NCBI GenBank assembly: GCA_040754495.1
Contig: JBFMCO010000022.1
Location: 18,233-82,232, forward strand
Length of the DNA stretch: 64,000 nucleotides
Source: Candidatus Micrarchaeota archaeon
GTDB taxonomy: Archaea > Micrarchaeota > Micrarchaeia > Anstonellales > Bilamarchaeaceae
Direction: 5' to 3'
Shown: positions 1,617 to 26,207 of the stretch, one piece after another
Layout of the letters: the number at the start of each line of letters is the position of its first letter
Position numbering within the stretch: position 1 is the first letter of the stretch
The notes under the pieces: model-generated
The model's database searches: none
Seen by the model: the letters and a program-made list of their open reading frames with translations, nothing else
What the model was told of the DNA's origin: nothing
Program-made: the position numbers and the translations under genes

Positions 1617-1946
1617 ATGGCGAAGGAAAAAATCGACTGGTCACAGCCCCCCAACCCGTCACTGCCGTTTATCAGCCCGGAGAACATAGGCGAGGTCGAG
1701 AAGGAGGCGCTGGCGATGGCCAACAAGGCTATTTCTCTCCTTGAGCAGGCGATAGCAGCCTGGGACAACGCTAAGGACAAGCCGCCTGAGCTGAAAGGGA
1801 CGATTCAGAGGTACAGGCGGTTCCACGAGGCGCTGAGCGACTGGGAGAAAAGGATGCTGCAGTCCCTGGGGAAGGCGGATTTCAATGCCCGGGTGAGGAT
1901 GCTCGAGGAGTTCGTGAGGATAAGCAGGGCATACGAGGGTAACTGA
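1617..1946 (+). CDS. small helical hypothetical protein (109 aa), translationally coupled to the giant ORF
   Basis: ORF track. Its TGA stop (1944-1946) shares one base with the ATG (1946-1948) of the giant ORF (TGATG). Confidence 0.55.
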   Translation: MAKEKIDWSQPPNPSLPFISPENIGEVEKEALAMANKAISLLEQAIAAWDNAKDKPPELKGTIQRYRRFHEALSDWEKRMLQSLGKADFNARVRMLEEFVRISRAYEGN

Positions 1947-16900: not shown

Positions 16901-19900
16901 CCTCCAGGGAGGGACATGTACGCCGTGGAGATAACCGGCGAGGTGCGGAAGGCCGTTCCGGACATAGACAAGAGGACGAACCGCATCCGGACCTCGGACG
17001 GCAGGATGGTCGCGATAATAGACTCGGCCGACCCGCTCGCGAAAACGCTGCTCGACGGGGGAATTCCTATGGTGAAGGCGAGGCGCGACATGCCCCGGCA
17101 GGGAGAAGTTGCCGTGGATGATGCGACCGGCATAATACGGGCCGCTCCAGGGTTCGGAAAGCTGACCGGAATCCAGGCCTACCAGGCCGGCCCGGTTCCG
17201 GTTTTCCGGGCGATGATGGGGGCAGGGGAGGGGTTCATGCTCGGGCAGTTCGCGCACATCGGCCATTATATATTGGCCAAGGAAACGAGCGTGAGGGAAG
17301 CCGCGCAGGTTCCTGCCGGAGTGGTGGCCGGGGAGATAGAAGCGCCGGGAATAGAGCGCATGCCCGCCCCGGCGCAGGTGGAAGGGGTAAGGGGCGGGAT
17401 GAGGGACCTGGTAGGGGCAGTCAGGTCCGGAGACGAGGGCAGGATAAGGGCCGCGGAAGCCGAGTACGATAAGAGGCTCGGAGTGCTGGCCAGGCTAAGG
17501 CCAGATACGGAACTGAGGGTCGTGGAAAACGAGACGCTGTTCGCGGACCTGGCTCCAGGGGGGCAGGCACAAGCGAAGGTGCTCGCGGCAGACTATCTCA
17601 GGAACAGGTCCGCAGGAAAGAAGCTTGACGGCGACCTGCTCGTCATCGACTACCTCGTATCGCATGGAATGAACGCGGTGGATGCGGCTGCGGCAGTCGT
17701 GAATCTGGGGGGCGCCGGGAAGGCGCCTGCCCCTGTGACGCTTCCGCCGTACGTTGCCGAGCACTTCGGGACCAGGCAGCCTGACCCGGTCACGGCTGAA
17801 AACGCGCTGATTCTTGCCGGGGACAGGAATACGCTCGGAAGATTGGGCATACCGGACGGCCTTGGCAGGGTCCTGAAAAGCGAGGGCATGGCTGTCGTGT
17901 CCGAAGGAAAGAGGATGACCGAGGTGAGAGGCTATTACGATCTGGAGAGCGGCAGGATAATATACCTCGGCAGGACGGACGCGCCAAGGGAGGTCACGGC
18001 GGGAGGAGTGGAGTTCGTCCTCCGTTTCGACCATGAGAGCGGGAGGGTATCCATTCCGGAAAGCGAGGACGTGCCGCTTCCGGATTCGATTGCCAGGCTG
18101 AACGGAATGCGCATTGCGCCCCCGCCCCAGGCAGTGCCGTTTGGCGTTTTCGGCATTTTCATGCCACTGTTCAAGTATTTCAGGAAGCCCCCGGCAGCCG
18201 CCCCGCAACCTGAGGCCGTGCCCATCAAGGTCCCGAGGTCCAGGAACGACATCCAGGGAAGGGCCGAGGGCATAAGGGGGCTGCCCCCGGACCAGCAGGC
18301 GCAGGAGCTTGCGGGGCTGCACGATGCCGTGGCCGCCGAGCATGGCGACGTTTATGCGAGGAATTACCGCGACATGATGGAGGAGCTGGTGAAGCATCCG
18401 GAGCATTCGGGCAGGATTCTCGACGAGTGGGAGGCGGTGAGGGCCGAGGAGAAGCATTACGAGGCGCTCGAGAGGGCGAGGAGGTATGCCTTCTCGGCCG
18501 CAGAGGGGTTCGGGATTGTCAGGGGGCAGGACAGGAAGCTCATATCAGGCGGAGAGTACGCGGCGGACATGGCACGCTCGAGGGGCGAGAAGCCCAAGGC
18601 ATTCCGGAAACGGCTCCTCGAAGCGTATGATGCCGGGTTCAGGAGAGGAGGCGTGCTCGATGCGAGGCTCGGCGTGGCAAATTCGCTGGGTGTGCTCGAC
18701 AATATAGTGGTAGAGTCGCGGCCGGGCGTCTTGGACGAAAAGAGGACGATGCAGGCGAGGAAGGAATTCATCAGGAAGAACCCGGAGTTCTTCGACCTAA
18801 TCATGAGGGGCGGACTCGAGGAGGTCATCTCCGCGAACCTCGGGGCCGGCGACGTGAGAATCGCAGGAGTCTCGCACGCGGGCGGCATGGCGCGGGGCGC
18901 GTACGGCGTGGAGGTCCTCCTTCCGGACGGCAGGAGGAAGCGCGTGTTCGTGAAGCTGGAGGACCTCGGGCCTGCCGCGTTCGGGGCTGATTTGGCCAGA
19001 GTCGAGGGCATGATTGCGCCGAAAGTCTTCACTGCGGATTCGCAGGGAAGGCCGCTCTCGTATGACGTGAGCTACAAGGACCCCATCGGAAAGAGGATGG
19101 TGAGCGGCCAGAGGCGCTTTGGCATCATGCTGGATGTCCGCGACACGGTAGGGCAGAAGGCCAGGGTGAGGACCGCGGACGGGAGGTTCAGGGAGATAAC
19201 GGTCACGAGCGTGGCGCTCGTTGGCGACGACATCTTCAATGCCAGGTCGCTTGACGGGATACCCCAGCCCTCCAGGGCCGCCGCGGAGGACTTCTGGACC
19301 GCAATGGGAAGCGAGGGCGGGCGCGAGGAGATGTTCAGGACGTGGTACGCGTACCAGGAGATGTCAAGGCGGGCCACCCTCAGCGACAGGCACACCGGGA
19401 ATTCGATGTACGTCATCGGCGTGACGTCGGATGGCGAGACCGTGAGGACGTTCCAGCCCATAGACCCGGACGATATCGGAGCCAAGGTCGAGGCCAGGCC
19501 GGAGGGCATGAACTTCAGCGAGTTCAACGATTTTTCCGCGCTCTACACGTCGAATTTCGTGAACGGCCTGTACCTCGCGTCGGATAACGCCGCGAGCCTC
19601 GGCCTGCTCAAATCCCCGATCAACCGCGCGCAAGCGAGCAGGGCAGCATCGAGCGACGCCGCGATGTCAGGGTGGAGGCTTCCGGAAGACCCCGGGTGGG
19701 TGAGGTCCGCGGCTGAGTTCATAATCATGGATTACGATGGCAAGCCGTTCGGCCTCGGAACGGACATGACGATAGGCGGGCACGGCTCGTACATAAAATA
19801 CCATGCCGGCAGGAGGAGGGCGGCAGGCTACGACGGCCGCGTCCGGATGTACTCGGACGAGATGCTGGCGGTTTATCGGGGAGCGCAGGACCCTGCCAAC

Positions 19901-22471
19901 GCGGCGGATGTCGCGCGCAGGGTGGATGAGCGGATGGGCTGGGAGAACGCCGGCCACATGAGGGCGCTTGAGCGGAGGTATCCGGACCTCGGCACCCTGC
20001 CTCCGCACATGCAGGAGTACAGGGAGCCCCTCGAGCGTGCGCGCAGGCGCATAGCGGGCGGCGAGAAGCCCGATGACGTTTACCTTGACGAGTCGAAGAG
20101 GATGCTGAGGGCTAATCCCCGGGAGAGGGCGAAGGCCGAGGACATAATCACGAGGCACGGGAGGGGCGTGGCAGACGCCGAGGTGTCCGCGGTCCTGGAG
20201 TTCCAGAAGAGAAACGGCATCGCGTCTTTCGAAGATGCGGCGTATGCATTCGTGAGACAGCAGGCCGCGCCGAAACCTCCAGCGGAACCGCTGCAGCCAT
20301 CCGAAGCCATTTACCGGAAGCATGAAGCGAATATTTTCGGCCCTGCCCGGGGGCAGCTTGGCAGCGAGCTCCTTGCCAGCCTGAGGGGCGCTGAGGAGAG
20401 GATAGCCGGCATGGTGCCTGAGGGGCCGGAGAGGGAGCGCGCGCTCAAAAGATGGGGCGAGTTTGCAGACCGGGCGCTCTCGCGCATCGCCGATCTCCCG
20501 GCACCCGAGCGCGCGGACGCGCTGGCGCGCTTCATGATAGCGGGCGACTATCTCCTCACAAGGGCGGCTGAGAACCCGGCGCGCACGAAGGCATGGCTCG
20601 ATTTCATCGCCGACAACCCGAACGCCGTCGAATACGCCATGCTCGCCAAACGAGGTCTCGACATAAGGGCGCAGGACATAGTCGTGGCCGAAATCCGCCC
20701 CAGCATCCATGACATGTCTGACAGGAAAGCGCTGAAGAAGGCCCTCGGGAAGAGGGTATCGTTCATGGAGGACGTGATACGCGAGATACCGGAAAGGTGG
20801 TTCATGGAGGCGGGGGTGAGGCGCGATTATATGATGGACCTTGCAGGTTCCGACCCGCTCAGGGCGGCGGCCGAGCTCGACCGCGTCACGATGCCGCACG
20901 GAATCAGTGTTGTGAGGAAGGCAACGGGCGTGTACCTCGCAGAGGTCTCGCACACGTTCTCGCTGCATGGCCAGCCGGACATCCGGGGCCTCGTAATAAC
21001 CGGCGCTTACGGGACGGGCGACATGTTCGACGGCATGACCGCGTATTTCAATCCCCTCAGCGGCAGGATTTTCATGCGCGGGACTGCCCATTTCGCGGAG
21101 GCCGGCATACCGGAATCCGCGCTTCCGGGCATGAAGATGACGTACGTGCATGAGATGCAGCACCTGCTCGACAACGCCGGCGGGTATGTCGCGGCACTCT
21201 CGGCCAGGTCTGCAGGGCGCGGAATGGCCTTCATGCCGGAATACCGCGCCAGGCTCGAGACCACGGCGGTCGCGAGAGAGGTCCTGGAGATGGTTCCCCG
21301 GCTGGGGGGCCGCGGGACCGAGGATGCCATCAACGCAGCCATCAGGAAGGACCCGGAGGAATACAAGCAGGCTTACAGGAAGGCGCTGGACGCCATGCGC
21401 ACAGGCGAGGACGGAAGGCCCGACCCGGACTGGGCGGGCAGGCCGCCCGAGGTTCTGCAGAACCGGCTGAGGAAGCTTATAGACGACGAATACCGGAGCC
21501 TTATGCCGCTGAGCTATACCGAGCTCTACGGGCCGACAACCGCAGGGATCGTCCGCGGGGAGATCACGGTCAGGAAGCCGGCCGCCCCCGAGGCCGTTCC
21601 CTTCAAGCCCGCCGTAGCCGCGGACTCGGCTCCGGGACGCGGGGAGCCGGACCTGCTGCGCTCTGCCAAGTATGAAAATGGAATCCTGACGATAGAGGCG
21701 GATTACCTGGGAGGCGAGCTTGCACATGCGGTGAAGCCGCAATTCGCCGAATCCGCGGTGAATGGCGAGTTCATCCCTTCCGGCGACAGGACAAAGCCGA
21801 GCGGCCTGTGGCTCTCGTGGGGCTCCGGCTGGGATTACTTCACAGGGAGCAACCCCGGCCTGATGTTCAAAGGCACCGTGAAGTTCAGGGCCGAGATGAG
21901 GTCCGGATTGAAGCTCTTCCTGCTTGACGGGCGCGAATCTTTCGATAGCATGATGGCCGAATTCCGGCGGGAAGTTAAGGTCGCCGAGACAACGGGGAGC
22001 GGGTATCCGGATGGCACCTGGCCTGATAACAACTGGGTGTACTACGAGAAGAGCCCATGGCAGTGGCTTAGGGAAAGGGGCTATGACGGCGTGGCCGTGA
22101 CGGAGGAGGGATATCTGGATACCAATTTCCAGTTCGGCTGGGACGCGGCCTCCATAGTCATTTTCGAGCCTGCGGGCAATGTGCGCCTGCCTGGAGGCGA
22201 AGCCAGGCTGGAGGAGTACAGGAAGGGTGCCCAGGGCAGCGCGGACGCCATGCTGCCCCTTATTGAAGAGGCAGGCCTGCCGTTATTCGGCCCGAATAAG
22301 GCGTATGACCTCATAGAGGCGTACGCCGGCGGCAGGGCTGAGCGCAGCCCGGGAAAGCGCATCGATGCCGAGGATGAGGCTTTCCTTAAAAAGCTCCTGG
22401 ACGAGAAACCGGGCCTTGAAGAGGCTGCGAAAAGGATTATCGAATACGTTAGAAAGAGGGAAGGGGGATAG
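1946..22471 (+). CDS. giant multidomain protein, 6,841 aa (repetitive helical region, hydrophobic cluster, 3 atypical kinase-like modules, 1 ePK/RIO-like module, HExxH site, unassigned C-terminal domain)
   Basis: Single uninterrupted ORF in the track. Competing ORFs inside it are antisense or off-frame, low-complexity Arg/Pro/Ser/Ala-rich shadows. Several catalytic-type motifs are conserved (see sub-features). Confidence 0.85.
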   Translation: MGQKPAERQPEVRDEGVRVAQPQVPMVPREQPRGGANEAAANAATGLGVMGKFAAVLDFIIADPSRAEGRLAEFSRRLEPYRADYPEETRIALGLFGAASRMYREAQDARAHGDTQRAQELEDSARAHFREGMAKAGSVPGMAQDIHSLAGAGASPEWIESRKAAFNDVGLGTWNRAIAIDQAVEWRVKNDAIIDAGGPAAREAEARMRDEAVRLAEGSRQGQAFSEQDYQDTMRRFSEASAPVTALAAHIHGAAALFHQAAMRQGVSEQYTKAMEDLKKEFDKLLKKLEEGTATKEDVEKAKELADAVKAAETDLEGLSGDDAVTVSGIHARGLSALRQGKGEMARVQRQLAREYAKTKDPGMRKKLERWSADLAKGKAPEAELERWLEAQRPAEFRALTTENIKRETAERAGLLREKGYERSHPRETKRIAELDREAAKALEEAKALRKRGDLDGAGKLEAKAFRLLREARAKVLWLERLDRFQARLAGIKEPPEMKKAAEEVSKALGGAFNFIGTQDGWRARLAFIAADVFIRYGKVLQSKPAAPLLKGILSIVGILSDPRKKVDEKRAQEEVGRLEPKALSAELGGLKGKVDDKAHSKLTDAVKAASGFIGTNQQWRAAYLLRGVKFFLDNREKIGTRGKLFEGIMGFLGRLADPKGEIGEEEAKREFARITGIPAEAPAQAGGRREAALTVAGLKQAGEGFEKRLRAIPGHEEQVRSITETVKLAGEEFRAGNVKKAQELLALAEKKAAALEGVVEREKRIDASGAPEEAREKLKKAGLAAFNDLGKQSGGRFDTVVKATDLFLGGMERKLWLQPGGETAALKLLDFIGRLGEGALQGLEFDSQAAESELSDISAQAGELWKAMLGASITEWLRLIEGWRTMGGLGTANAKFLDDLAESYRALQKRLEEGAKAEDIEQEASALEARAEHAKKIGEELEERERAVAVFRGDVEDFKADTAAFRASERFKKYAADAEPYVKKAEEWEEKAATFMAEAEKLEGDAKAEMIKRAADAVKRSEELLGHAGKIIGLREAGASDEVVSAYRKAANSYIAVFEPAPPGLAGEAQIFPDDVLAYAAIVFSAADSYLFFRKHGRAEAEKRAERLVLGTTFASRIADAEAELRGLDGEMEYAEAIDSDTAARKQKLMDSATELRGDKRKVPKPREGSAEWYGQMALDALERGDFAVADLAVYRGMFEKVAPGGGRNYVPEDIERDISAVLRGEKVPAAGELDRYLTLIDSASLTAQADLLKRDNPVSGSAEERERKQRVHKLAEEIKRRADAHDFAGAERLLEMATVYTGLARDKKWKAFAGADRMEAALDAELAGGDHSGEFQAAVVYQKASEETASFRASLADWGAGLAENKKLVERGLLRVEQLVSEGKTEEAGALFGQLMLYAGAVRTFAAPKKRDVIPGFDPAYDSSKLGGMGLALDALIKGEAEVGGKKPEEVFSQSFLETQREYLNKRADAYLRLSEKMPVGAETVGQGLAEVRRRAAEGDFEGALRLLEMAGNYYGEAAPGKQAGWRYRDATRKGPGYERGRQDMLNAISMEIAAKDPADHDEALETFNSGSQRISVAKAAIERYEIVERNIYNALPTAVIDEWDHHGTIALRGEPTPENEEGPVLGRVSMEKIRRYESEHPDDTALGGGLSLKTLLTKMKKAAEEGDDEAFRKYEKAFFSRLYLVAGRILRREQLEENRQEVKKYIEVLEGFTAAITIDQLVPYGWLEGDDERLKKVTALEKQLKNNEISKAEFESKLNVILSERLQMIEQNKFTDKVPGPMRETVRQLAPRAKALLERARGLYGKLEKMDNNSSEFPLEEYKQVVKDLSALTEEYQTQRKISVAYSHIDQQLQMNKSYHEAIAGEGALASDYPDAYGRAVKFLGFSNGHFKKAQELLLKGEFKQAGAEFERGINRREWALMEADPNVLFGQANTYLGNLPISMLTGVPIIPESTTAMDEVSMIKHRPGWGVLKLAARGRGEDPYKYTYGWAKQQMENDQDVNLGNPARPDYVKDPQQSWAYYNYSPITEYGADFMGYEELGGRLWNSVLEGDGRKVQRYQKQMLVMEASVFYIPVDTFIDGINSKITYKDWQKRIHFQAMYNGDLAYDELFGDWGLMDARTGAKIAEGVGMFALSIATMGLGSVGFVVGGGKMLWDAIDGIQKDLAKYGEVTTMSWVNLGLTVVGLGASAAAGRLVKASQTAIEAAKLGDAAKFTTQVARAGRFATAARVVAYTDITVNVIGMVPQFYYGIKLMAEGKYAEGTQQLAFGAFSAFMAYHGGVQQLRGMRGLKTEIAKMGALREAHAKAPEVFASLSTPEGMFSFLQRVRARDPVSLVIYDNLPKPQRILFDGMLADRNVVSALKKNDIGLARGAFDSGLETFKQLSDLGGTRALTDAAHLGTQAGLEPFMRDLLIPESATGPQRTRRDAAYARLGEMKKRPETAEAAATIETLLKDKDVQKGNETGVLKIGWAADEIRSQQMQTINRYTDSVVSGEQARLGLYSSEGEAARANAKRIGDSYLAYARARSEGKPFDWDYHAKRMGMGPEDAKKLFAKLDAVPDARTVAGVISREGVRQAVRNRVALDGRAILGDTPLTELAGEGALFSRWGELTPEDLFGMALNRRERAAEELEGAGRETDGRLAAAKRERATALSREADALDAEVKRRQAPEEVLTPDSLRSGAKEKFGRAQRLRSEGRDEEAFALESEARRSIALAADLEKFGEYGIVRATPDGQFIHRDFPDRRFTRAELDDAAILVRAIRKRGVPTDKRLLAIYDALPKEVKKDYRGGEDALMKSVLDVIYSRRGQAAEAAAPVLRSEELPVPSDPALAAVAGMTVPGTNLRWGVIPPDQVLQWQAKVYEAYKAAYGKIGLIYDSPEAMFAKNPEVLVATDGEGRIVAFTILKKTAFGTKLSLVGAVPDIPEGRAAARAMIQGFPALEGAYITAPGAPAHLAIKAGVPVVPYDSARIIQGEVPAEAGSPGAYQNGEGKWVRQEAQRGDGPEGMAAISRMPGFADSELVKHAIAQDGVKPGAKPEELTWNDLVEQAVKMGELPDRPEVRQNAFAVPMVINGKPEIVVKVMFGKPPADALEVRSVLQSRGIGGQVAADAINLYKIFNGEQVPLEVASRYMDVTLHDQYTRIKQEKIASGMPETKADAEALVEVAKSMAPRAGEGGLEAGGPISQEGVELLRMAEGKLDLVEGLTGADVAKATLDWSQPRLEMLRILTVEGSPYRERFLAADPAERAVIADAIARGATPERAFLKAAEGMVPADGRKLLEVGERLKGLPEAERNLRLRDLESLNPALGRMLKRLADPATPETVKQEIAAEWDSAVAGAERHKRVNEARAARDAAQLAEQELALLKGTPDEQAAGRVPAWIESAAKARGKDPAALHEALVKAYGEGGTEGRLRVLNELGALGGMPEGVRSTFVQNSPEFFELIVRGGLEGRVAAMPGFEGGIIVNAEKLEGLRGAYKIDVEMPDGSKRSLFVKAEDLVPAQLGSELAGGHGLLPPVIHAADGQGMPFTYDTGIRYTDPVSGQETAHMQEFGIMEDVHDYATARHSDVIMLPDGRSAQVTVESVAVVSREVFADPARMQAILADEHHPAHKVVKAFWELAKTEEGRQRIFQAWRAYHELSRRAMLLDRFDRNTVAVLVTTPEGESVLTFQPIDMDYVAGKIGSDGDLRFFNDDFASASVDFATKIAGAAGVPAETVLGEMAKAYGSDSVFPREAADERAAAAASVRATLNKYDGKPFGAGYDVEDYGKTIGKDYVEYGGRDRIVGRRDGRAILHAGDITPLGERIGGAEAEADFSRFNREKFERMAKPLEEAAPPPAVEAQPPAGEKTPPGKRGAGNVTPPARPGAMRGAPAGGPRTVPGKRGAGGGEPVAAPGGRRKVAIGGGEVELEPAPERAPELAAMKISEDELSQLGVSYQGLYQDGAGRRLNVFETEAGGERRLVAIPADLSGKAMLDAIGAEVRALGRPTELPPELRGMPPDVSSQVGMDGAPKARLLSSEPLGRGSSADVYLAEMVIDGRPTRVAVKIYKNPEGNGTWQERAEYFADEVRKAKILGDAGLGPKVFGIADAGGNMAFAMEVIEGKPMYIDEMAPGLRAKYINEDTFAQVRKMYDELIAHGYEIGDFDFMILTEGPNAGRVVFLDAGALREVPRGAQGEPRPRYGDGAKRAEGGRLQAEAMTAMEYFTKMDRDELAAVAEVSKGLLGQGHVDSDTMRLLAVRWGSREGRARAIGEYITSIAGADEQKAKATFDALKRIEAETGIRLLPDGARFEDLAARAGEGEISEAEIIAPMSGDDYHAALAGMRTQAARESVALHFSGRGEIPDAATFENAAILADEAAGAKVPEQGQAELSVYYDGNGRIIGIADNERLFYGDPKAINDKTPEAKVRVDLESGRIVSMDERGMKNPLLADLVGLRILPGKGAEGAGPGGRGPPPLPPMKVLDEGSIVSAYASGTGQAQRTRAARSFVMLDGEGQGRVISELRSQGRHEEARHLTELQAIGGEAGAGIERVYGIPRDEIITIYAREPTAQGARKALAERLGIVILPFEWEHYPADRRQWVSVPYRDFRSFEDDHFLFGLITSGNMIDTVSQMYPGGRIASIEYHNGAIGAYEVAIRTQNGETRTVFVKRQDLRPDAAGSDYSVRSGVPAPEVITSAGGRELTYVGPDGEVSRYGIITNMRDFGGMMRFGGVEAQVRATDETALWDLDRSPLAGSLMSQDPQVRAKFWEELGYMLAGSYATGIWDRHAGNARAMVLEVQNADAHTNPADQSSPTVGEALSQKGYWVWQQDGKTYMFMIGGIDTDTAANYLAGEAHGSFDMTGMNIRYGYVDLHSLFNRLATIRGTSVDALVMEAFGDVSGGQVPGPVAMGMKRWWRDFGSDPHYADEMAGRFSSHEGESIGFGYPRTEQELDVIRQGGVLHQENPQNGDPYTIIAFADGRSRMRPEYEIVHREDIEALDPRIAAMFPPGRDMYAVEITGEVRKAVPDIDKRTNRIRTSDGRMVAIIDSADPLAKTLLDGGIPMVKARRDMPRQGEVAVDDATGIIRAAPGFGKLTGIQAYQAGPVPVFRAMMGAGEGFMLGQFAHIGHYILAKETSVREAAQVPAGVVAGEIEAPGIERMPAPAQVEGVRGGMRDLVGAVRSGDEGRIRAAEAEYDKRLGVLARLRPDTELRVVENETLFADLAPGGQAQAKVLAADYLRNRSAGKKLDGDLLVIDYLVSHGMNAVDAAAAVVNLGGAGKAPAPVTLPPYVAEHFGTRQPDPVTAENALILAGDRNTLGRLGIPDGLGRVLKSEGMAVVSEGKRMTEVRGYYDLESGRIIYLGRTDAPREVTAGGVEFVLRFDHESGRVSIPESEDVPLPDSIARLNGMRIAPPPQAVPFGVFGIFMPLFKYFRKPPAAAPQPEAVPIKVPRSRNDIQGRAEGIRGLPPDQQAQELAGLHDAVAAEHGDVYARNYRDMMEELVKHPEHSGRILDEWEAVRAEEKHYEALERARRYAFSAAEGFGIVRGQDRKLISGGEYAADMARSRGEKPKAFRKRLLEAYDAGFRRGGVLDARLGVANSLGVLDNIVVESRPGVLDEKRTMQARKEFIRKNPEFFDLIMRGGLEEVISANLGAGDVRIAGVSHAGGMARGAYGVEVLLPDGRRKRVFVKLEDLGPAAFGADLARVEGMIAPKVFTADSQGRPLSYDVSYKDPIGKRMVSGQRRFGIMLDVRDTVGQKARVRTADGRFREITVTSVALVGDDIFNARSLDGIPQPSRAAAEDFWTAMGSEGGREEMFRTWYAYQEMSRRATLSDRHTGNSMYVIGVTSDGETVRTFQPIDPDDIGAKVEARPEGMNFSEFNDFSALYTSNFVNGLYLASDNAASLGLLKSPINRAQASRAASSDAAMSGWRLPEDPGWVRSAAEFIIMDYDGKPFGLGTDMTIGGHGSYIKYHAGRRRAAGYDGRVRMYSDEMLAVYRGAQDPANAADVARRVDERMGWENAGHMRALERRYPDLGTLPPHMQEYREPLERARRRIAGGEKPDDVYLDESKRMLRANPRERAKAEDIITRHGRGVADAEVSAVLEFQKRNGIASFEDAAYAFVRQQAAPKPPAEPLQPSEAIYRKHEANIFGPARGQLGSELLASLRGAEERIAGMVPEGPERERALKRWGEFADRALSRIADLPAPERADALARFMIAGDYLLTRAAENPARTKAWLDFIADNPNAVEYAMLAKRGLDIRAQDIVVAEIRPSIHDMSDRKALKKALGKRVSFMEDVIREIPERWFMEAGVRRDYMMDLAGSDPLRAAAELDRVTMPHGISVVRKATGVYLAEVSHTFSLHGQPDIRGLVITGAYGTGDMFDGMTAYFNPLSGRIFMRGTAHFAEAGIPESALPGMKMTYVHEMQHLLDNAGGYVAALSARSAGRGMAFMPEYRARLETTAVAREVLEMVPRLGGRGTEDAINAAIRKDPEEYKQAYRKALDAMRTGEDGRPDPDWAGRPPEVLQNRLRKLIDDEYRSLMPLSYTELYGPTTAGIVRGEITVRKPAAPEAVPFKPAVAADSAPGRGEPDLLRSAKYENGILTIEADYLGGELAHAVKPQFAESAVNGEFIPSGDRTKPSGLWLSWGSGWDYFTGSNPGLMFKGTVKFRAEMRSGLKLFLLDGRESFDSMMAEFRREVKVAETTGSGYPDGTWPDNNWVYYEKSPWQWLRERGYDGVAVTEEGYLDTNFQFGWDAASIVIFEPAGNVRLPGGEARLEEYRKGAQGSADAMLPLIEEAGLPLFGPNKAYDLIEAYAGGRAERSPGKRIDAEDEAFLKKLLDEKPGLEEAAKRIIEYVRKREGG
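8330..8800 (+). other. hydrophobic/Gly-rich cluster (probable membrane-spanning segments) inside giant ORF
   Basis: Translations such as GVGMFALSIATMGLGSVGFVVGGG, WVNLGLTVVGLGASAAAG and LAFGAFSAFMAYHGG. This is the only strongly hydrophobic stretch I saw in the 6,841 aa. Confidence 0.45.
12245..13370 (+). other. atypical kinase-like module A of giant ORF (catalytic-loop His replaced)
   Basis: FVQNSPEFFELIVRGG... SLFVKAEDLVPAQLG (Lys codon 12428-12430) ... LLDRFDRNTV (12887-12904) ... FQPIDMDYV (12962-12973) ... KYDGKPFGAGYD. Collinear with modules B and C. Confidence 0.55.
13970..14470 (+). other. ePK/RIO/Bud32-like small kinase-like module of giant ORF
   Basis: Gly-rich loop LGRGSSADVY (from 14006), VAVKIYK (Lys codon 14081-14083), AHGYEIGDFDFMIL (Asp 14372-14374), VVFLDAGAL (Asp 14429-14431). 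No Asn follows the putative catalytic Asp. Confidence 0.5.
15790..16720 (+). other. atypical kinase-like module B of giant ORF
   Basis: GAYEVAIRTQNGETRTVFVKRQDLRPDAAG (Lys 15887-15889), GIWDRHAGNARAM (16235-16252), MIGGIDTDTA (16400-16414). Confidence 0.55.
18767..19880 (+). other. atypical kinase-like module C of giant ORF
   Basis: FIRKNPEFFDLIMRGG... GAYGVEVLLPDGRRKRVFVKLEDLGPAAFG (Lys 18953-18955), LSDRHTGNSMYV (19385-19402), FQPIDPDDIG (19457-19471), DYDGKPFGLGTD. Confidence 0.55.
21149..21163 (+). other. HExxH motif (HEMQH) in the C-terminal region of giant ORF
   Basis: MKMTYVHEMQHLLDNAG. cat gag atg cag cac lies in the giant-ORF frame. Confidence 0.5.
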
Positions 22472-22489: not shown

Positions 22490-23026
22490 TCAGGGCACGG
22501 CCTGCCCGTTTATCACGAAGCTGAATTTCTGCCTCTCCTTCTCAAGCGCCTTCACGGTTTCCAGAGAGTCCTTCAGCATGCGCAGGAAAGGCTCCCAGGA
22601 GCCGCTGCCGGAATGGATGCTGCGGATGGCCTCGGAAACGACGACCTTCCTTTTCTTGTCCACGAAAGTGCAGTAGATGCTGCTTCCCCGGCGCCTGACA
22701 TCGATGCCGTATTCCGCGAAATCCTCCTCCGGCGGAAGTGTGGCGCCGAGCGCGAGCGCGGATGCGACGGATTCTATCCCCTTCCTCGGCTCGGACGAAT
22801 AGGACTGGACGCCGACGCCGTCCTTGAGATAAAGGCTGTCCGGAATCCTGAGGAGCGGCTCCAGCTCCCGGGGCATCCCGCCGGCGATTTCCGCGAGGGT
22901 GTCCATGAGGCGCTCTTTAGTTGCGCGGTCCCGCAGGAGCGGATCTGCCAGCATCTTCTGGAACCTTTTTTCGCCTATGTCCGTTACGGTTGCTCCGGCC
23001 GTTTTCTTTTTTCTCTTTCCTGCCAT
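22490..23026 (-). CDS. small hypothetical protein, paralog family member 1 (array convergent on giant gene)
   Basis: ORF 22490..23032 (GTG); ATG at 23026 preceded by GGTG. The core IPDSLYL...YGIDVRRRGSSIYCTFVDKKRKVVV...GSWEPFL aligns with the 24133..24663 product. Its stop lies 18 nt from the giant ORF stop. Confidence 0.65.
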   Translation of the reverse strand: MAGKRKKKTAGATVTDIGEKRFQKMLADPLLRDRATKERLMDTLAEIAGGMPRELEPLLRIPDSLYLKDGVGVQSYSSEPRKGIESVASALALGATLPPEEDFAEYGIDVRRRGSSIYCTFVDKKRKVVVSEAIRSIHSGSGSWEPFLRMLKDSLETVKALEKERQKFSFVINGQAVP

Positions 23027-23028
23027 CG

Positions 23029-23577
23029 TCACACCAGGTACATGTCGCCGCAGTCGCTGACCGCTACTCTCCCCGGCTTCGCCTTCGCGGCTGCCTCGGC
23101 GGCCCTTATCGCGCCAGCGACTTCCGCCCAGTCCTTTTTTTGCGGCTTGTCCATATAGCGCATGAGCGGCTCCCTCACCATTATCCTCCGGCCCATGTCC
23201 GCGAGCACGAGATAGACTGTGCTTGTCGTCTCATAGACGGCGATGCCGTATCCCATGTCGGGCTTCCGGTCCATATGGCCGGATGAAAGGAAACGCGCCA
23301 GGACAGCGTTTATCCCGAACCCGGCGTCATCCGAAAGCGTGATTGCATTACCGGCCTCGCGCCGGTAAAGGCGCGCGGGGAGCGCAAGCGCCGCCTTGAC
23401 ATCCTCGCTCCAGTTCTGCGCGTATCCTGCAAGGCCCGAAGCGGCGTCCTCCCGCGACACGGAGGCAGGTGGCGCAGCTTCTGCAAGATGGCCTTCAGTG
23501 GCGCCGGCCTTCGCGATGAACGGCTTTTCCGGCGGAGGCAGGGGCACTGGACCGCGGGCATCCCTTTTCTTTGGCAT
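23029..23577 (-). CDS. small hypothetical protein, paralog family member 2
   Basis: ORF track. LPARLYRRE...GYGIAVYETTSTVYLVLADMGRRIMV is collinear with members 1 and 4. The stop is 2 nt before the next start. Confidence 0.6.
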   Translation of the reverse strand: MPKKRDARGPVPLPPPEKPFIAKAGATEGHLAEAAPPASVSREDAASGLAGYAQNWSEDVKAALALPARLYRREAGNAITLSDDAGFGINAVLARFLSSGHMDRKPDMGYGIAVYETTSTVYLVLADMGRRIMVREPLMRYMDKPQKKDWAEVAGAIRAAEAAAKAKPGRVAVSDCGDMYLV

Positions 23578-23609
23578 GAGTAAAACTTGCGATGAACCGT
23601 TTAAAATGG

Positions 23610-24107
23610 CTAGGTCGCCTCGATGAGCCGCCAGTAGGTGTTGTTGTCGAGGATGTTCCTCGCCTTCGCGAGGTCGGCCGGGGGAATCTGCGCCCCCGTA
23701 TCCAGCGCCTTCTTCACCGAGCGCAGGAATGCGAGGTCGGCCCGGGCGGCGGTTATGCAGCCCTGGACGATGCGTTCTATCTTGCCCTTGGCTTCCTCCC
23801 GCGACGCCTCCCCGCTTTCCAAGGATACCTCGATTTTTGACGGGTCTGCCAGGCTCCTGAAAACCACGCCGGAGCCGCCAAGCTCGTCTTTCTTCCCTCC
23901 GGCCATGCCCCGGACGAAGCTCTCGACGCCCCTCCGGAGGACGCCTGCCCCGTTCTCCAGGTCCCGCTCGAGGTATTCGATTTTGCCATCAATCCCGCGG
24001 GCAAGGCCGGCCATCTCCAGGCCCTCGCCTTTTTCCGGGGCGGCGCCTCTTGACGGGAATTTTCCTGAATCGCGCTTTTTCGGGAAGGGAATCACCTTTC
24101 TCTCCAT
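23610..24107 (-). CDS. small hypothetical protein inside the paralog array (no clear similarity to the others)
   Basis: ORF track. Basic N-terminus FPKKRDSGKFPSRG resembles the N-tails of its neighbours. Short spacers of 25 and 32 nt to flanking genes. Confidence 0.5.
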   Translation of the reverse strand: MERKVIPFPKKRDSGKFPSRGAAPEKGEGLEMAGLARGIDGKIEYLERDLENGAGVLRRGVESFVRGMAGGKKDELGGSGVVFRSLADPSKIEVSLESGEASREEAKGKIERIVQGCITAARADLAFLRSVKKALDTGAQIPPADLAKARNILDNNTYWRLIEAT

Positions 24108-24132
24108 GGGGGGTTATTGGCGAATCGGGATT

Positions 24133-24663
24133 TTAAATTGAGCTAACCGAGCCTTCTTTCACAATCACGAACTCGAAGCGCCTGCCGCTGCGCCTGTAGG
24201 ACTCGGCGAGCCTGAGCGCCTGGGAGAGGCTGTCCAGGAATCCGGTCCAGGAACCGGTGCTGACGTACATGTTCTTTATGTCGTCGAACACGACTACGCC
24301 CCGCTTCCGGTCCACCAGCGTGCAGAAGGTGTTGTCGCCCCGCGAGCTGATGTGTATGCCATAATCCGGAAGGCCGGGCGGGAACCCTGAGCCCAGCATG
24401 AGCGCCCCTGCGGCTTTCGCCGCGCCTTTCTCGGCATCAGATGAGAAGGACGATTCGCCGGTGCGGTAAAGCCTGGCAGGGATTCCAAGAAGGTGGGCCT
24501 GCTCGTCGCTCATCGGGACGATTCTCCGCAGCTGTCCGATGCACTCTTCCCGCGTTACTGAATTGGCGTCGGTCATATTGCGCCTCCTCCTCCACTCCGC
24601 AAGGTCCGTCATCCCCGACTCGCGCTCCGGCGCGCCGGAGGAGCGGCCCTTCCCGCCAAGCAT
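24133..24663 (-). CDS. small hypothetical protein, paralog family member 4
   Basis: IPARLYRTGE...DYGIHISSRGDNTFCTLVDRKRGVVV...GSWTGFLDSL...FEFVI is clearly homologous to the 22490..23026 product. Confidence 0.65.
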   Translation of the reverse strand: MLGGKGRSSGAPERESGMTDLAEWRRRRNMTDANSVTREECIGQLRRIVPMSDEQAHLLGIPARLYRTGESSFSSDAEKGAAKAAGALMLGSGFPPGLPDYGIHISSRGDNTFCTLVDRKRGVVVFDDIKNMYVSTGSWTGFLDSLSQALRLAESYRRSGRRFEFVIVKEGSVSSI

Positions 24664-24703
24664 GCCATCTAACTCTTGCGAAGATATTTTAATGGGGCAC
24701 GGA

Positions 24704-25228
24704 CTAGCGGCCCGTCCTGATTCTGTCCGCGAAGCGCTCCATGGAGCAGGATGGGTTCCCGGGGTCGCGGACCGCCATCTCCAGCTCCTTGAGCCGCAAT
24801 CCGTCGGGATGGGCGCGGTCTATGAAGCGCGCGATAATTTTTCCGCCCTCTTCATGGAGCGAGAGATACCAGTATTTCACCCACTGCGAGATGTCGCCGA
24901 GAGTCTCGCCTTCCATGCGCGGCCTCTGCCTCGACGACTTGGTGTCGCAGAGCTCGAGGCCGCCCTCGAAGCGGGAGAGCCGGACCTTCGGCGGGAACGC
25001 GAGCGCCACGTAGATGTCGAAGCCCGGCTCTGCGCCGAGCGTCCTGCAAAGCTCGGCGATGGCTTGCCGGGCCTCCACGGTCTTCCGCATGGGTATCGGC
25101 CAGCCGGGGCTCGCCTTCCCGGCACGGTCGCCTTCCGGTTTCATGGCATCCAGCTCCCGCCTGGGGGGCCGGCCTGGCTTTTCCGGCGTGTCCGTTTCGC
25201 GGGGCGGGCCGGTGATCCTTTTGACCAT
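24704..25228 (-). CDS. small hypothetical protein, first gene of the convergent array (distant or unrelated to the paralogs)
   Basis: ORF track, ATG at 25228. Pro/Arg/Glu-rich N-tail like its neighbours. 40-nt spacer to the next gene. Confidence 0.5.
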   Translation of the reverse strand: MVKRITGPPRETDTPEKPGRPPRRELDAMKPEGDRAGKASPGWPIPMRKTVEARQAIAELCRTLGAEPGFDIYVALAFPPKVRLSRFEGGLELCDTKSSRQRPRMEGETLGDISQWVKYWYLSLHEEGGKIIARFIDRAHPDGLRLKELEMAVRDPGNPSCSMERFADRIRTGR

Positions 25229-25283
25229 AGGATATTACTTATGGTTATCAACATTTTTAAACAGAATTAATGACATATTGTGC
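25229..25283. promoter_or_regulatory. AT-rich divergent intergenic region (candidate bidirectional promoter)
   Basis: 55 bp between divergent starts 25228 (-) and 25284 (+). Contains ATTTTTAAAC and TTAATGA, in contrast to the GC-rich surroundings. Confidence 0.35.
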
Positions 25284-26207
25284 ATGATGCTCGCAGGACC
25301 CAGGGCCAGGCTTGCGCAGAGGGCTGCAAGGTTCTCTTCGTACGCGGTGCTTGCCGGCAGCCTGATGGGCGGATGCCATGACAAAGGCGGTGCCGCCCCT
25401 GCCGAAGACGGGGGCGCCGAACTTCCGTTCTACCGGCTTCCGAGGGAGAGGGACGCGTCAGCGCCGGATTCCGCAGGGGCAATGCCGCCGGCGGCTGCTC
25501 CGCCTGGCACGCAGAGCGCCATACGAGGCCCCCCGCCGCAACGCTCAAGCCTCGGCTGCCAGGACGGGATGGCGAATGCGGGCAGGTACTGCATAGACGC
25601 TTACGAAGTCCACCTCGTGGACGGAACGGGCTCGCCCCGTCCCTATTACACGCGCCCGCCGGAGGACATGCGGGGGCTTAGGGCGGCGACTGCTCCGGGC
25701 GTGTTCCCGCAGGGCTACCTGAACCAGCTCCAGGCGCGCACGGCGTGCCGGAATGCGGGCAAGAGGCTCTGCACGCTCGAGGAGTGGCAGGGCGCGTGCA
25801 GGGGAAGCGGAGGCATGAGGTATCCATATGGCATGTCGTTCGAGGAAGGGAGATGCAATACGCTGAAGTCGCCGCACATACTCGACAAAATCTTCCCGGA
25901 CATACCGCACCTCCGGCGCATGGGCAGGGAGTTCAACGACCCGAGGCTCCTGCAGGAGCCGGGCTACCTGGCGAGGGGCGGCGAATACAGCGGCTGCGCC
26001 ACGGAGAGCGGGATTCACGACATGGCCGGAAACCTCTCGGAATGGGTGGATGATTCCGTGGAGCGGGACGGCATGCTGTATGGGACTTTCGCGGGCGGAC
26101 CTTTCAGCGGGCCGGTGAAAGGCGGGTGCGGGCACTGGACGAGCGTGCATGCGGCGAAATACTCGGATTACTCGATAGGGACAAGGTGCTGCGCGGACGG
26201 GCGGTAG
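25284..26207 (+). CDS. FGE-sulfatase/SUMF1-type (C-lectin fold) domain protein with lipoprotein-like N-terminus
   Basis: In-frame ATG at 25284 (MMLAGPRARL...LAGSLMGGC). Motifs CRNAGKRLCTLEEWQGAC and GIHDMAGNLSEWVDD are typical of the FGE-sulfatase domain. The upstream part of ORF 25014..26207 overlaps the - strand gene. Confidence 0.65.
   Translation: MMLAGPRARLAQRAARFSSYAVLAGSLMGGCHDKGGAAPAEDGGAELPFYRLPRERDASAPDSAGAMPPAAAPPGTQSAIRGPPPQRSSLGCQDGMANAGRYCIDAYEVHLVDGTGSPRPYYTRPPEDMRGLRAATAPGVFPQGYLNQLQARTACRNAGKRLCTLEEWQGACRGSGGMRYPYGMSFEEGRCNTLKSPHILDKIFPDIPHLRRMGREFNDPRLLQEPGYLARGGEYSGCATESGIHDMAGNLSEWVDDSVERDGMLYGTFAGGPFSGPVKGGCGHWTSVHAAKYSDYSIGTRCCADGR

Follow-up and report, generated by a model that had tools for sequence, protein, structure and literature searches.

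The five small genes on the reverse strand of the window (by which we mean the whole stretch of 64,000 nucleotides that was analysed) belong to a conserved, lineage-specific cassette of undescribed protein families, and their arrangement supports a functional tie to the giant gene (G) on which they converge. No earlier description of the cassette or of its families was found in the literature searched. Our leading, tentative reading sees the small proteins as soluble partners of a giant membrane-anchored protein, with an accessory or docking role; we infer that they bind to it. The features discussed below are listed in Table 1.

Table 1. Location of the cassette genes, protein regions and promoter-like boxes in the window
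Feature	Position	Strand	Description
Leader gene	1617-1946	+	109 aa; stop codon overlaps the ATG of G (TGATG)
Giant gene G	1946-22471	+	6,841 aa; N-terminal ~2,100 aa rich in Ala/Glu/Arg/Lys; C-terminal ~4,600 aa with repeated modules
Gly-rich hydrophobic cluster of G	8330-8533	+	aa 2129-2196; Kyte-Doolittle scan
Module m1 of G	11933-13498	+	aa 3330-3851; loop-motif variant DRFDRN; 34% identity over 438 aa to m3 (self-comparison)
Module m2 of G	15446-16945	+	aa 4501-5000; DRHAGN
Module m3 of G	18416-20005	+	aa 5491-6020; DRHTGN
S1	22490-23026	-	family A, subfamily A1; 178 aa from the ATG, as in the NCBI call (P0003); tail MAGKRKKKTAGATVTDIGEKRFQK
S2	23029-23577	-	family A, subfamily A2; 182 aa; tail of 'PPPxxxF' type, VPLPPPEKPFIAKAG
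A/T-rich TATA-like box	23600-23607	-	centre 26 nt upstream of the S2 ATG; kept in L003
S3	23610-24107	-	separate family; 165 aa; tail MERKVIPFPKKRD
TATA-like box	24130-24139	-	centre 27 nt upstream of the S3 ATG; spacer 96% conserved in L002
S4	24133-24663	-	family A, subfamily A1; 176 aa; protein chosen for modelling
TATA-like box	24684-24693	-	centre 25 nt upstream of the S4 ATG; kept in L002
S5	24704-25228	-	separate family or very divergent member of family A; 174 aa; first gene of the array
TATA-like box	25253-25261	-	centre 28.5 nt upstream of the S5 ATG

Five small genes under purifying selection

The preliminary description of this DNA had reported five reverse-strand ORFs of 165-182 aa ending near the giant ORF, had taken at least three of the products for paralogs and had recognised no known family; on all these points our results agree. 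The genes are separated by 2 nt (S1 and S2; this becomes a 4-nt overlap if S1 starts at the upstream GTG at 23032, giving 180 aa) and then by 32, 25 and 40 nt, and the stop codon of S1 lies 18 nt from the stop codon of the 6,841-aa ORF, tail-to-tail. S1-S5 are real genes under purifying selection: comparisons with L002 and L003 (∼80% nucleotide identity) give a pN/pS of 0.20-0.33 for the annotated frame and of at least 1 for the other frames, save for the antisense frame with the same third codon positions. Values for individual genes are 0.31 (S1) and 0.30 (S2) against L003, 0.20-0.33 for S3, and 0.12-0.29 for S5 when all comparisons are taken together. In one genome pair (96% identical), pN/pS of the array is 0.27 versus 0.25 for five adjacent housekeeping genes (Fisher p=0.89); arms-race evolution of the array is not seen.

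Three of the proteins, S1, S2 and S4, are related to each other (we call them family A): S1 and S4 share 35% identity over 159 aa, S2 shares 23% over 99 aa with S1 and 31% over 96 aa with S4, and the three are collinear along their full length when aligned. Two motifs had been assigned to both S1 and S4, GSWxxFL and FxFVI; we find GSWxxF and FxFVI in both. S3 and S5 have no significant similarity to the other array proteins by pairwise and profile comparison. This rules out S3 as a hidden paralog of family A; S5 has a weak collinear profile match to the family (hhalign P=0.003, probability 11%). Both have relatives in similar settings: a homolog of S3 (27% identity over 136 aa, E=6e-13) is encoded in the L016 array, beside a G-like gene, and a homolog of S5 (32% over 139 aa) is the first gene of its array in L004 too. 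Searches of Pfam, PHROGs, NCBIfam and PADLOC gave no significant match to a known family for any of S1-S5, the only PHROG match being a sub-threshold one between S1 and phrog_26379 (unknown function; E=0.0011 over 49 residues).

S2-S5 each have their own promoter-like box at the place where a leaderless mRNA would start; the probability of four such boxes at this spacing by chance is ∼4e-7. S1 is probably co-transcribed with S2.

A cassette with a leader gene, a giant gene and a convergent array

Twelve independent loci have enough sequence to be judged (the window lineage, L004, L006, L007, L009, L010, L011, L013, L014, L016, L017 and the P0010 contig), and in every one of them the array is directed towards the 3' end of a large or giant gene. 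At these loci the gene measures from at least 822 aa (where it is cut by a contig end) to 7,286 aa; for the cassette in general, we put its giant gene at 2,500 to more than 9,500 aa. Homology of the giant gene to G was shown in 10 of the loci. Where array and giant gene abut, their coding ends are between a 12-nt overlap and an 18-nt gap apart; at L006 and L009 the two are separated by a small gene that has the orientation of the giant gene. Convergent genes often lie close together in this compact genome (the GT2 and cysS genes, for example, overlap by 4 nt), so the spacing alone says little. The identity of A domains across loci is ∼25-45% and the flanking housekeeping genes differ. Several expectations of the preliminary description can be judged from these loci. 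It had asked if the small genes are widespread in places that lack a giant neighbor, or confined to this genome: they converge on a large or giant gene in 12 out of 12 loci, and family A comprises 238 clusters (by exhaustive profile search). It had considered the opposite strands atypical; this orientation, found in the window and in 11 out of 11 other loci, is the conserved hallmark of the cassette. Its term 'giant multi-enzyme gene' remains unproven for the G of the window, which shows resemblances only at the level of motifs and has no sequence match in Pfam (searched as two overlapping pieces or as 760-aa segments) or among PDB sequences.

The leader gene is 43% identical to a 113-aa gene of L004 and a 103-aa gene of L007, 40% identical to a 110-aa gene of L017/L018, and more weakly related to a 111-aa gene of L013, and all these relatives are located directly upstream of the giant gene. 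Neither the leader nor a 296-aa upstream ORF has a significant match in Pfam, NCBIfam or PADLOC.

The C-terminal half of G is 26-58% identical to the convergent giants of L004, L006, L007, L009, L011, L016 and L017, in homologous stretches of 55-866 aa; one part of G that is conserved across loci is aa 6160-6840. Residues 2129-2196 of G probably form a membrane-inserting region, judging from their hydropathy; comparable hydrophobic clusters are found at aa 2266-2284 of the leader-associated giant of L004 and at aa 1837-1911 of that of L007. No signal peptide of G was obvious by eye. The repeated module of G has motifs that, by eye, suggest a kinase (GxxGAY, FVK, DR[HF]xxN and PIDxD), an identity that is not supported by a profile built from nine copies of the module, which found no match among PDB sequences. 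PPP-phosphatase motifs are found only in the giant of L014/L015 and in part in that of L011 (with a Pfam Metallophos match in L015 only), and an HExxH motif is common to several giants. Docking of an RVxF-type tail on a PPP phosphatase module was also considered and rejected: GDxHG, GDxxDRG and GNHE are absent from the G of the window.

The numbers of A copies and of G-type modules are 3:3 in the window, 2:2 in L004, at least 3:1 in L006, 3:0 in L014 and 1:0 in L013 (several of the giants are only partly visible). A rule of one small gene per giant module, which fits the window and L004, fails in L006, L013 and L014. Other array members are an ankyrin-repeat protein in L006 and, in L014, an RNA-ligase-like protein with an RNA 3'-phosphate cyclase gene beside it. 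These members fit cargo at least as well as partners of the giant protein.

The genomes of Micrarchaeota and other DPANN archaea are tiny (∼1 Mb), and these organisms rely on host cells. The cassette occupies more than 23 kb of such a genome and is conserved in diverged Micrarchaeota, with all of its protein families lacking annotation; its size and conservation point to a large, lineage-defining function. The combination of leader, giant gene and convergent array is a simple genomic signature by which the system can be spotted in new genomes.

Family A and its basic tails

Word-index searches for homologs returned close orthologs only, and a narrower family A alignment searched against genome and metagenome collections returned only five loci; the exhaustive profile search was needed to reveal the family. 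As judged from its sequences, family A consists of two old subfamilies, A1 (S1 and S4) and A2 (S2), which occur together in the window lineage, L004, L006, L007, L010 and L017. Since A1 and A2 are found jointly in most arrays, including those of distant genomes, they are not the recent 'local expansion' for which they had been taken.

The A domain (∼145 aa) is an alpha/beta domain. The AlphaFold2 model of S4 has a pLDDT of 91.3 and a pTM of 0.80; its residues 1-30 are less confident (block mean pLDDT 59-66), consistent with disorder. The fold is confidently predicted and, according to this model, has no counterpart among solved structures; profile searches of PDB sequences with the small proteins were likewise empty. 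The near-invariant residues of the family (P62, S74, D118, R121, V125 and W139) include no obvious catalytic set, and a binding module therefore fits. In fusions the A domain is always C-terminal: we observed B-A (P0112, P0127 and L016), TIM-barrel-A (P0039, L009 and L014) and A-A (P0005 and P0095) proteins, where the TIM barrel is sugar-isomerase-like and not endonuclease IV-like. A-like domains were looked for within the giant proteins and none was found.

The short basic, Pro/Gly-rich tails noticed in the preliminary description hold for all five proteins, the first 30 residues of which have a pI of 10.0-11.3, and for the family at large: over 106 members, the tail is 34 aa long at the median and has a pI of 10.2, with 20% K+R, 12% P and 8% G. 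The family core is near-neutral (median pI 5.9); S1-S5 as whole proteins have a pI of 9.0-9.4. The type of tail goes with the subfamily: (K/N)V(I/V)x(F/L)...RR in A1 (type 1) and PPPxxxF in A2. The type-1 motif is present in 29% of A tails versus 7% of composition-matched shuffles and 11% of control proteins (p=0.012), and its enrichment in non-A array proteins is borderline (five out of 15 versus seven out of 61, p=0.053). The TIM-barrel-A fusions have no basic tail. These tail-less fusions, the presence of the type-1 motif in about a third of the members and the failure of A copies to track the modules count against a role as partners of the giant protein. The leader, the giant protein, and A1 and A2 with their distinct tail peptides are targets for experiments.

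Possible roles of the small proteins

If the small proteins are partners of the giant protein, as we tentatively prefer, the cassette would be a Micrarchaeota-specific unit consisting of a leader gene (∼110 aa), the giant gene and a convergent array encoding one to seven small soluble proteins, which would reside in the cytoplasm and assemble with the giant membrane-anchored protein. The A domain of S1, S2 and S4 would be the docking module and, where it is fused behind other domains elsewhere, may bring these to the same complex; the disordered basic tail, with its subfamily motif, may be a second contact or a targeting peptide; S3 and S5, from separate families, would be additional partners. 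No hydrophobic segment is present in the small proteins, and G has an internal hydrophobic cluster and no obvious signal peptide, which is compatible with cytoplasmic partners.

The small proteins might instead be cargo or effectors, recruited by the giant membrane protein and passed on to the site of host contact or through it, with the tail as a recruitment or export signal. Mixed, effector-like arrays (with the ankyrin-repeat protein of L006, the RNA-ligase-like protein of L014 and TIM-barrel-A proteins at several loci) speak for such a role, as do the disordered tail of conserved composition that is common to unrelated array families, the Gly-rich hydrophobic cluster inside G, and the attachment of cultured Micrarchaeota to host archaea, on which they depend (PMC8784108, PMC5498576). 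We nevertheless consider it doubtful: neither export machinery nor a known signal was identified, most of the array genes belong to the same few small non-enzymatic families (A1, A2 and B), unlike a varied effector repertoire, the A1-A2 pair is kept across distant genomes, and evolution of the array is not accelerated relative to housekeeping genes. Still less likely, in our judgement, is a role as immunity or antidote proteins, which would act inside the producing cell to neutralise the enzyme modules of a giant protein that resembles polymorphic toxins. The cassette does resemble polymorphic toxin-immunity loci (CDI and Rhs, including archaeal ones) in having a huge protein of variable module content (with the PPP-phosphatase signature in L014/L015 and HExxH in several giants) and an adjoining array of small genes that varies between genomes, and the promoter-like boxes of S2-S5 would permit expression apart from the giant gene. 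It differs from them in that the small genes converge on the giant gene instead of following it in the same orientation, that searches of Pfam, NCBIfam and PADLOC gave no known domain of the toxin, trafficking or immunity type, and that the families are conserved and not fast-evolving, with a pN/pS equal to that of housekeeping genes. In addition, A1 and A2 are kept whatever the modules of the giant (L013 and L014, without the repeated module, keep A), and A-domain fusions with enzymes and with other array families occur. To our knowledge, known immunity proteins lack conserved basic tails that are disordered. Of the analogy drawn in the preliminary description to immunity, adaptor or chaperone arrays, the tie to the giant gene stands and the immunity part fails several tests (strand, domains, evolution rate and A-enzyme fusions).

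A role in binding nucleic acids or in regulation, with the tails binding DNA or RNA and the proteins controlling the giant gene (e.g. its very long transcript) or acting without binding the giant protein, seems improbable. The tails are strongly basic (pI about 10.2) and disordered across the family, and one array has an RNA-ligase-like gene adjoining an RNA 3'-phosphate cyclase gene; but no known nucleic-acid-binding domain or fold was matched, a regulator would not usually come as three or more paralogs at one locus together with other families, and the TIM barrel of the fusions resembles sugar isomerases, not endonuclease IV. Linkage without a shared function, in which small genes and giant gene would merely move as a block (for example, in a mobile island), is to us the least credible of all. 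Different housekeeping genes surround the cassette in different genomes, a tRNA-Gly gene adjoins it in the window, and a VapBC-like pair (a separate insertion) is found in the L017/L018 arrays. However, the association and its orientation survive divergence to ∼25% identity, purifying selection acts on all five genes, none of the loci showed an integrase or another mobility gene, and no relatives were found among viral contigs (IMG/VR), phages (INPHARED) or plasmids (PLSDB), a result that rules against an origin from mobile elements.

Among the closest known systems are also the chaperones and adaptors that are dedicated to large secreted effectors and have their genes next to those of the effectors, such as type III class I chaperones (SrcA/STM2138 and ShcF) and type VI Eag/Tap proteins. 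The similarity of the small proteins to the secretion-chaperone fold is not significant, type III class I chaperones are acidic (pI about 4-5) in contrast to S1-S5, and we know of no type III-like secretion apparatus in archaea. The toxin fold and the DNA-binding antitoxin domains of type II toxin-antitoxin modules are absent from S1-S5, and regulators of PP1-type phosphatases, which dock through RVxF, would need a partner with the PPP motifs that the G of the window lacks.

Taken together, the leader, the giant protein and the array could also be an unrecognised apparatus by which Micrarchaeota interact with their hosts, with a membrane-anchored scaffold that carries variable enzyme modules and tail-recruited small clients of new fold that are delivered to, or act at, the host contact; we regard this as a rather unlikely extension. 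Giant proteins with transmembrane segments and globular modules that are thought to act on a host have been described as SPEARE proteins in Nanohaloarchaeota (PMC6642349) and as 'Archaeovorins' in Omnitrophota (bioRxiv 10.1101/2023.11.21.568195). As far as the consulted portions of these two reports go, neither a conserved convergent array of small tailed proteins nor a leader gene is described for them. They have recognisable Pfam domains whereas G has none, and they have no sequence relationship to G; what they share with it is that they are giant genes of ultrasmall cells with a host-dependent or predatory life.

The small genes and their families

The five small minus-strand genes S1–S5 lie at the positions given in the preliminary description (see table), separated from one another by spacers of 2, 32, 25 and 40 nt, and the S1 stop is 18 nt from that of the giant gene G, an ORF of 6,841 aa (1946-22471). 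High-GC DNA yields many spurious ORFs, and several long ORFs are found on the strand opposite to S1–S5 in this region; we therefore tested coding directly with three relatives: L001 (96% identical, with the gene order of the window, adjoining purN and cysS), L002 (82%) and L003 (about 80%). Compared with the ~80% relatives, each of the five genes has a pN/pS of 0.20–0.33 in the annotated frame and of at least 1 in the other frames, except for the antisense frame whose third codon positions coincide with those of the annotated one; all five are real genes. The S1 product is 100% identical to an NCBI entry ('MAG: hypothetical protein AB1529_02195 [Candidatus Micrarchaeota archaeon]'). The S3 ortholog in L001 (about 8090-8590, + strand) contains a 10-nt gap, be it a genuine frameshift or a mistake in the assembly; the gene call there starts at an internal Met (134 aa), so that the basic tail would be lost; S3 of L002 has a complete N-terminus (88% identical over 65 aa).

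Coordinates of the small genes, the leader gene and the repeated modules (m1–m3) of giant protein G in the window
Feature	Position	Strand	Description
S1	22490-23026	-	178 aa counted from ATG
S2	23029-23577	-	182 aa
S3	23610-24107	-	165 aa
S4	24133-24663	-	176 aa
S5	24704-25228	-	174 aa
Leader	1617-1946	+	~110 aa; stop overlaps the ATG of the giant gene
m1	11933-13498	+	aa 3330-3851, ~500-aa module; 34% identity to m3
m2	15446-16945	+	aa 4501-5000
m3	18416-20005	+	aa 5491-6020

At least three of the five products had been described as paralogs with a shared collinear core, and S1, S2 and S4 indeed align end to end, including the motifs noted earlier (S1 versus S4: 35% identity over 159 aa; S2 versus S1: 23% over 99 aa; S2 versus S4: 31% over 96 aa). 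Neither BLASTP nor profile comparison detected a relationship of S3 or S5 to these three; against a deep profile of family A (S1, S2, S4 and their homologs), S5 aligns collinearly over 88 columns, but with weak statistics (hhalign P=0.003, probability 11%), and it is possible that S5 is a very divergent member. Word-index searches retrieved close orthologs only; searching exhaustively with HMMER and a profile of S1, S2 and S4 gave 238 cluster representatives at E<=1e-3 (177 at E<=1e-10), mostly of 145–230 aa. All taxonomically named members or contigs are Candidatus Micrarchaeota. Positions P62, S74, D118, R121, V125 and W139 (S4 numbering) are near-invariant. Family A is large yet without annotation; nothing significant was found for the small proteins in Pfam, PHROGs, NCBIfam or PADLOC.

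The AlphaFold2 model of S4 (106 sequences; pLDDT 91.3, pTM 0.80) predicts a short helical part followed by a two-layer alpha/beta domain. Residues 1-30 have block mean pLDDT values of 59–66, consistent with disorder. As far as the tools can see, this confidently predicted fold has no match among solved structures and would be new.

124 A domains cluster into three groups: A1 (S1, S4 and 74 others), A2 (S2 and 43 others) and a small group fused to TIM barrels. At least one A1 and at least one A2 gene are found per array in the window, L004, L006, L007, L010 and L017. Since both subfamilies recur in these six arrays, the paralogs are ancient and have been kept together; they do not stem from a recent 'local expansion', the origin proposed earlier.

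All five window proteins start with a basic tail, as had been noted (pI 10.0–11.3 over the first 30 residues). In family A the tail has a median length of 34 aa and a pI of 10.2 (20% K+R, 12% P, 8% G), versus a pI of 5.9 for the core. Two tail types recur in array proteins: type 1, (K/N)V(I/V)x(F/L) and then basic residues, in S1 (TVTDIGEKRFQK), S4 (MTDLAEWRRRR) and S3 (KVIPFPKKRD; unrelated to family A), and type 2, a proline run followed by F (e.g. VPLPPPEKPF in S2). Among inspected members, A1 often has type 1 and A2 type 2. A regular expression for type 1 matches 29% of family A tails; shuffles matched for composition give 7% and control proteins taken from these loci 11% (p=0.012). Among non-A array proteins it matches five out of 15, versus seven out of 61 controls (p=0.053). 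Enrichment of the motif is thus seen, yet it is nowhere near universal.

The cassette and its giant protein

Genomic contexts were taken from contigs selected for their length, in which genes were labelled by family profile and BLASTP. They represent 12 independent loci: the window lineage (including L003, which displays the convergent end of G), L004/L005, L006, L007/L008, L009, L010, L011, L013, L014/L015, L016, L017/L018 and the contig of protein P0010 (read from gene calls, without DNA). In all 12 the array converges on a large gene of the opposite strand and faces its 3' end; the tail-to-tail convergence noted for the window holds at every informative locus and is a stronger observation than first claimed. 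The partner genes range from at least 822 aa (ending at a contig edge) to 7,286 aa, several giant genes being incomplete. Where array and partner abut, their coding ends lie between a 12-nt overlap and an 18-nt gap; in the L006 and L009 loci they are separated by a small gene that is encoded on the same strand as the giant gene. Nine partner genes match G directly (26–58% identity over stretches of 55–866 aa), and the L013 partner (2,507 aa) shares 47% identity over 239 aa with its L004 homolog.

The leader gene is found directly upstream of giant genes in the window, L004, L007, L013 and L017/L018. The leaders of L004, L007 and L017/L018 are 40–43% identical to the window copy; that of L013 matches it weakly (20% over 86 aa, E=0.001) and shares 29% identity with the L007 copy. 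Tandem units of leader, giant gene and convergent array seem to be present in L004, L007 and L017/L018: there, the array is bordered on one side by the start of a leader–giant pair and on the other by the end of a different giant gene. Flanking genes are ordinary housekeeping genes, different at each locus. The cassette of L013, minimal but complete, spans about 10 kb; on one side it is flanked by a class II aminoacyl-tRNA synthetase (tRNA-synt_2b) gene, on the other by Yip1/adenylosuccinate lyase genes.

Homologs of S5 (32% over 139 aa, likewise the first gene of the array) and S3 (27% over 136 aa, E=6e-13) are found in the arrays of L004 and L016, respectively; the whole array, S3 and S5 included, belongs to the cassette. 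Another small family, B, is found in the arrays of L004, L007, L013 and L017, and two further small families are common to L007 and L017; an ankyrin-repeat protein is encoded in the L006 array and an RNA-ligase-like protein in that of L014. Fused A domains are C-terminal in every case, and the N-terminal partner is B (P0112, P0127, L016), a second A domain (P0005, P0095) or a TIM barrel that resembles sugar isomerases and has MJ1311 as its nearest solved relative (P0039, L009, L014). A VapBC-like toxin-antitoxin pair (PIN-domain and ribbon-helix-helix) is inserted mid-array on the opposite strand in L017 (3718-4376, -) and L018 (11135-11793, -).

G had been called a giant multi-enzyme gene. 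Giant it is, and a multi-enzyme nature is plausible for the family; G of the window itself has no match in Pfam, even scanned as 760-aa pieces, or among PDB sequences. Its three repeated modules carry motifs that look kinase-like by eye (GxxGAY, FVK, DR[HF]xxN and PIDxD), the loop His being replaced in m1 as well as in its counterparts from L004, L007, L009 and L011; a profile of nine module copies found nothing among PDB sequences. G also contains a Gly-rich hydrophobic cluster (aa 2129-2196) and an HExxH motif (HEMQH, aa 6402; 21149-21163, +) within a C-terminal stretch that it has in common with L004; the giants of L004, L007 and L017 likewise have this motif in their C-terminal parts. The module content of the giant proteins varies between genomes, as the full PPP-phosphatase signature (GDxHG, GDxxDRG, GNHE) is present in the L014/L015 giant (L014 13498-21059, -; L015 3772-11333, -; Pfam Metallophos match in the L015 copy), two of the three motifs in that of L011 (6050-16027, -), and neither the motifs nor a Metallophos match in G of the window. 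Many antisense ORFs are seen on the minus strand within G (longest 691 aa, 19667-21742), most likely as composition artefacts; its coding strand is purine-skewed (GC skew +0.09 to +0.20, AT skew +0.12 to +0.28).

Possible roles of the small proteins

The cassette is conserved, specific to Micrarchaeota, built from orphan families and undescribed in the freely accessible full-text literature on giant or large proteins of Micrarchaeota/DPANN. By analogy it comes closest to polymorphic toxin-immunity loci, to the chaperones and adaptors encoded next to large secreted effectors, and to the SPEARE and Archaeovorins giant proteins of other ultrasmall symbionts; it shows none of the tested membership features of known systems.

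Having no hydrophobic segments, the small proteins are predicted to be soluble. The conserved neighbourhood, the retention of A1 together with A2, the domain fusions and the absence of residues that look like a catalytic set fit best, if tentatively, with accessory or docking partners that would join the giant protein in a cytoplasmic assembly, the basic tails serving perhaps as extra contact or targeting peptides. Small-gene copy number shows no correspondence with the number of repeated modules, and no A-like domain was found inside the giant proteins. Export of the small proteins as cargo, which the ankyrin and enzyme members of the arrays and the tails common to array proteins would favour, is unlikely.

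A role as immunity proteins is rather improbable: the array is on the opposite strand, known domains are lacking, the small proteins are conserved regardless of the module content of the giant, A domains occur in fusions, and the evolutionary rate is normal (pN/pS 0.27 for the array versus 0.25 for a set of five neighbouring housekeeping genes, p=0.89, in a single pair of close genomes). We give little credence to nucleic-acid binding or regulation, and hardly any to mere linkage between the small genes and the giant gene. No family relatives were found on viral contigs, phages or plasmids.

Promoter-like elements and neighbouring genes

An archaeal TATA box centred about 26 nt before the start codon implies a leaderless mRNA. 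The start codons (ATG) of S2, S3, S4 and S5 are each preceded by an A/T-rich box of 8-10 nt whose centre lies 25–28.5 nt upstream (chance of four at such spacing about 4e-7, at 2.1 such runs per kb in the window), and these boxes are kept in the ~80% relatives, where the spacers are 83–96% identical versus about 82% overall. S1, which lacks its own spacer, is probably co-transcribed with S2. At S2, S3 and S4 a short element, (T/A)TCGC(A/C)A, follows the TATA-like box at a distance of 3-6 nt (23587-23593, 24118-24124 and 24676-24682, -); it is absent at S5 and largely kept in L002 and L003, and may represent a regulatory or promoter-proximal site or else a duplication remnant.

The DNA polymerase D large subunit (DP2) gene marks the window as archaeal DNA and, together with the identity of S1 to a Micrarchaeota protein, places its genome in DPANN, a group of very small archaea; two papers (PMC8784108, PMC5498576) describe cultured members of this group as host-dependent. 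An intein carrying a LAGLIDADG homing-endonuclease domain (Pfam) interrupts the DP2 gene (31778-36658, -).

A tRNA-Gly(CCC) gene (461-540, +) lies about 1.1 kb upstream of the leader, with a 296-aa orphan ORF without family match (655-1545, +) in between. No integrase was seen, so there is no evidence for the cassette as a tRNA-inserted island. On the other side, the gene divergent from S5 (25371-26207, +) encodes a probable lipoprotein with an FGE-sulfatase (formylglycine-generating-enzyme-like) domain; a longer ORF of 397 aa from 25014 overlaps S5, and 25014 is probably not the true start, the gene being called at 278 aa in L001.
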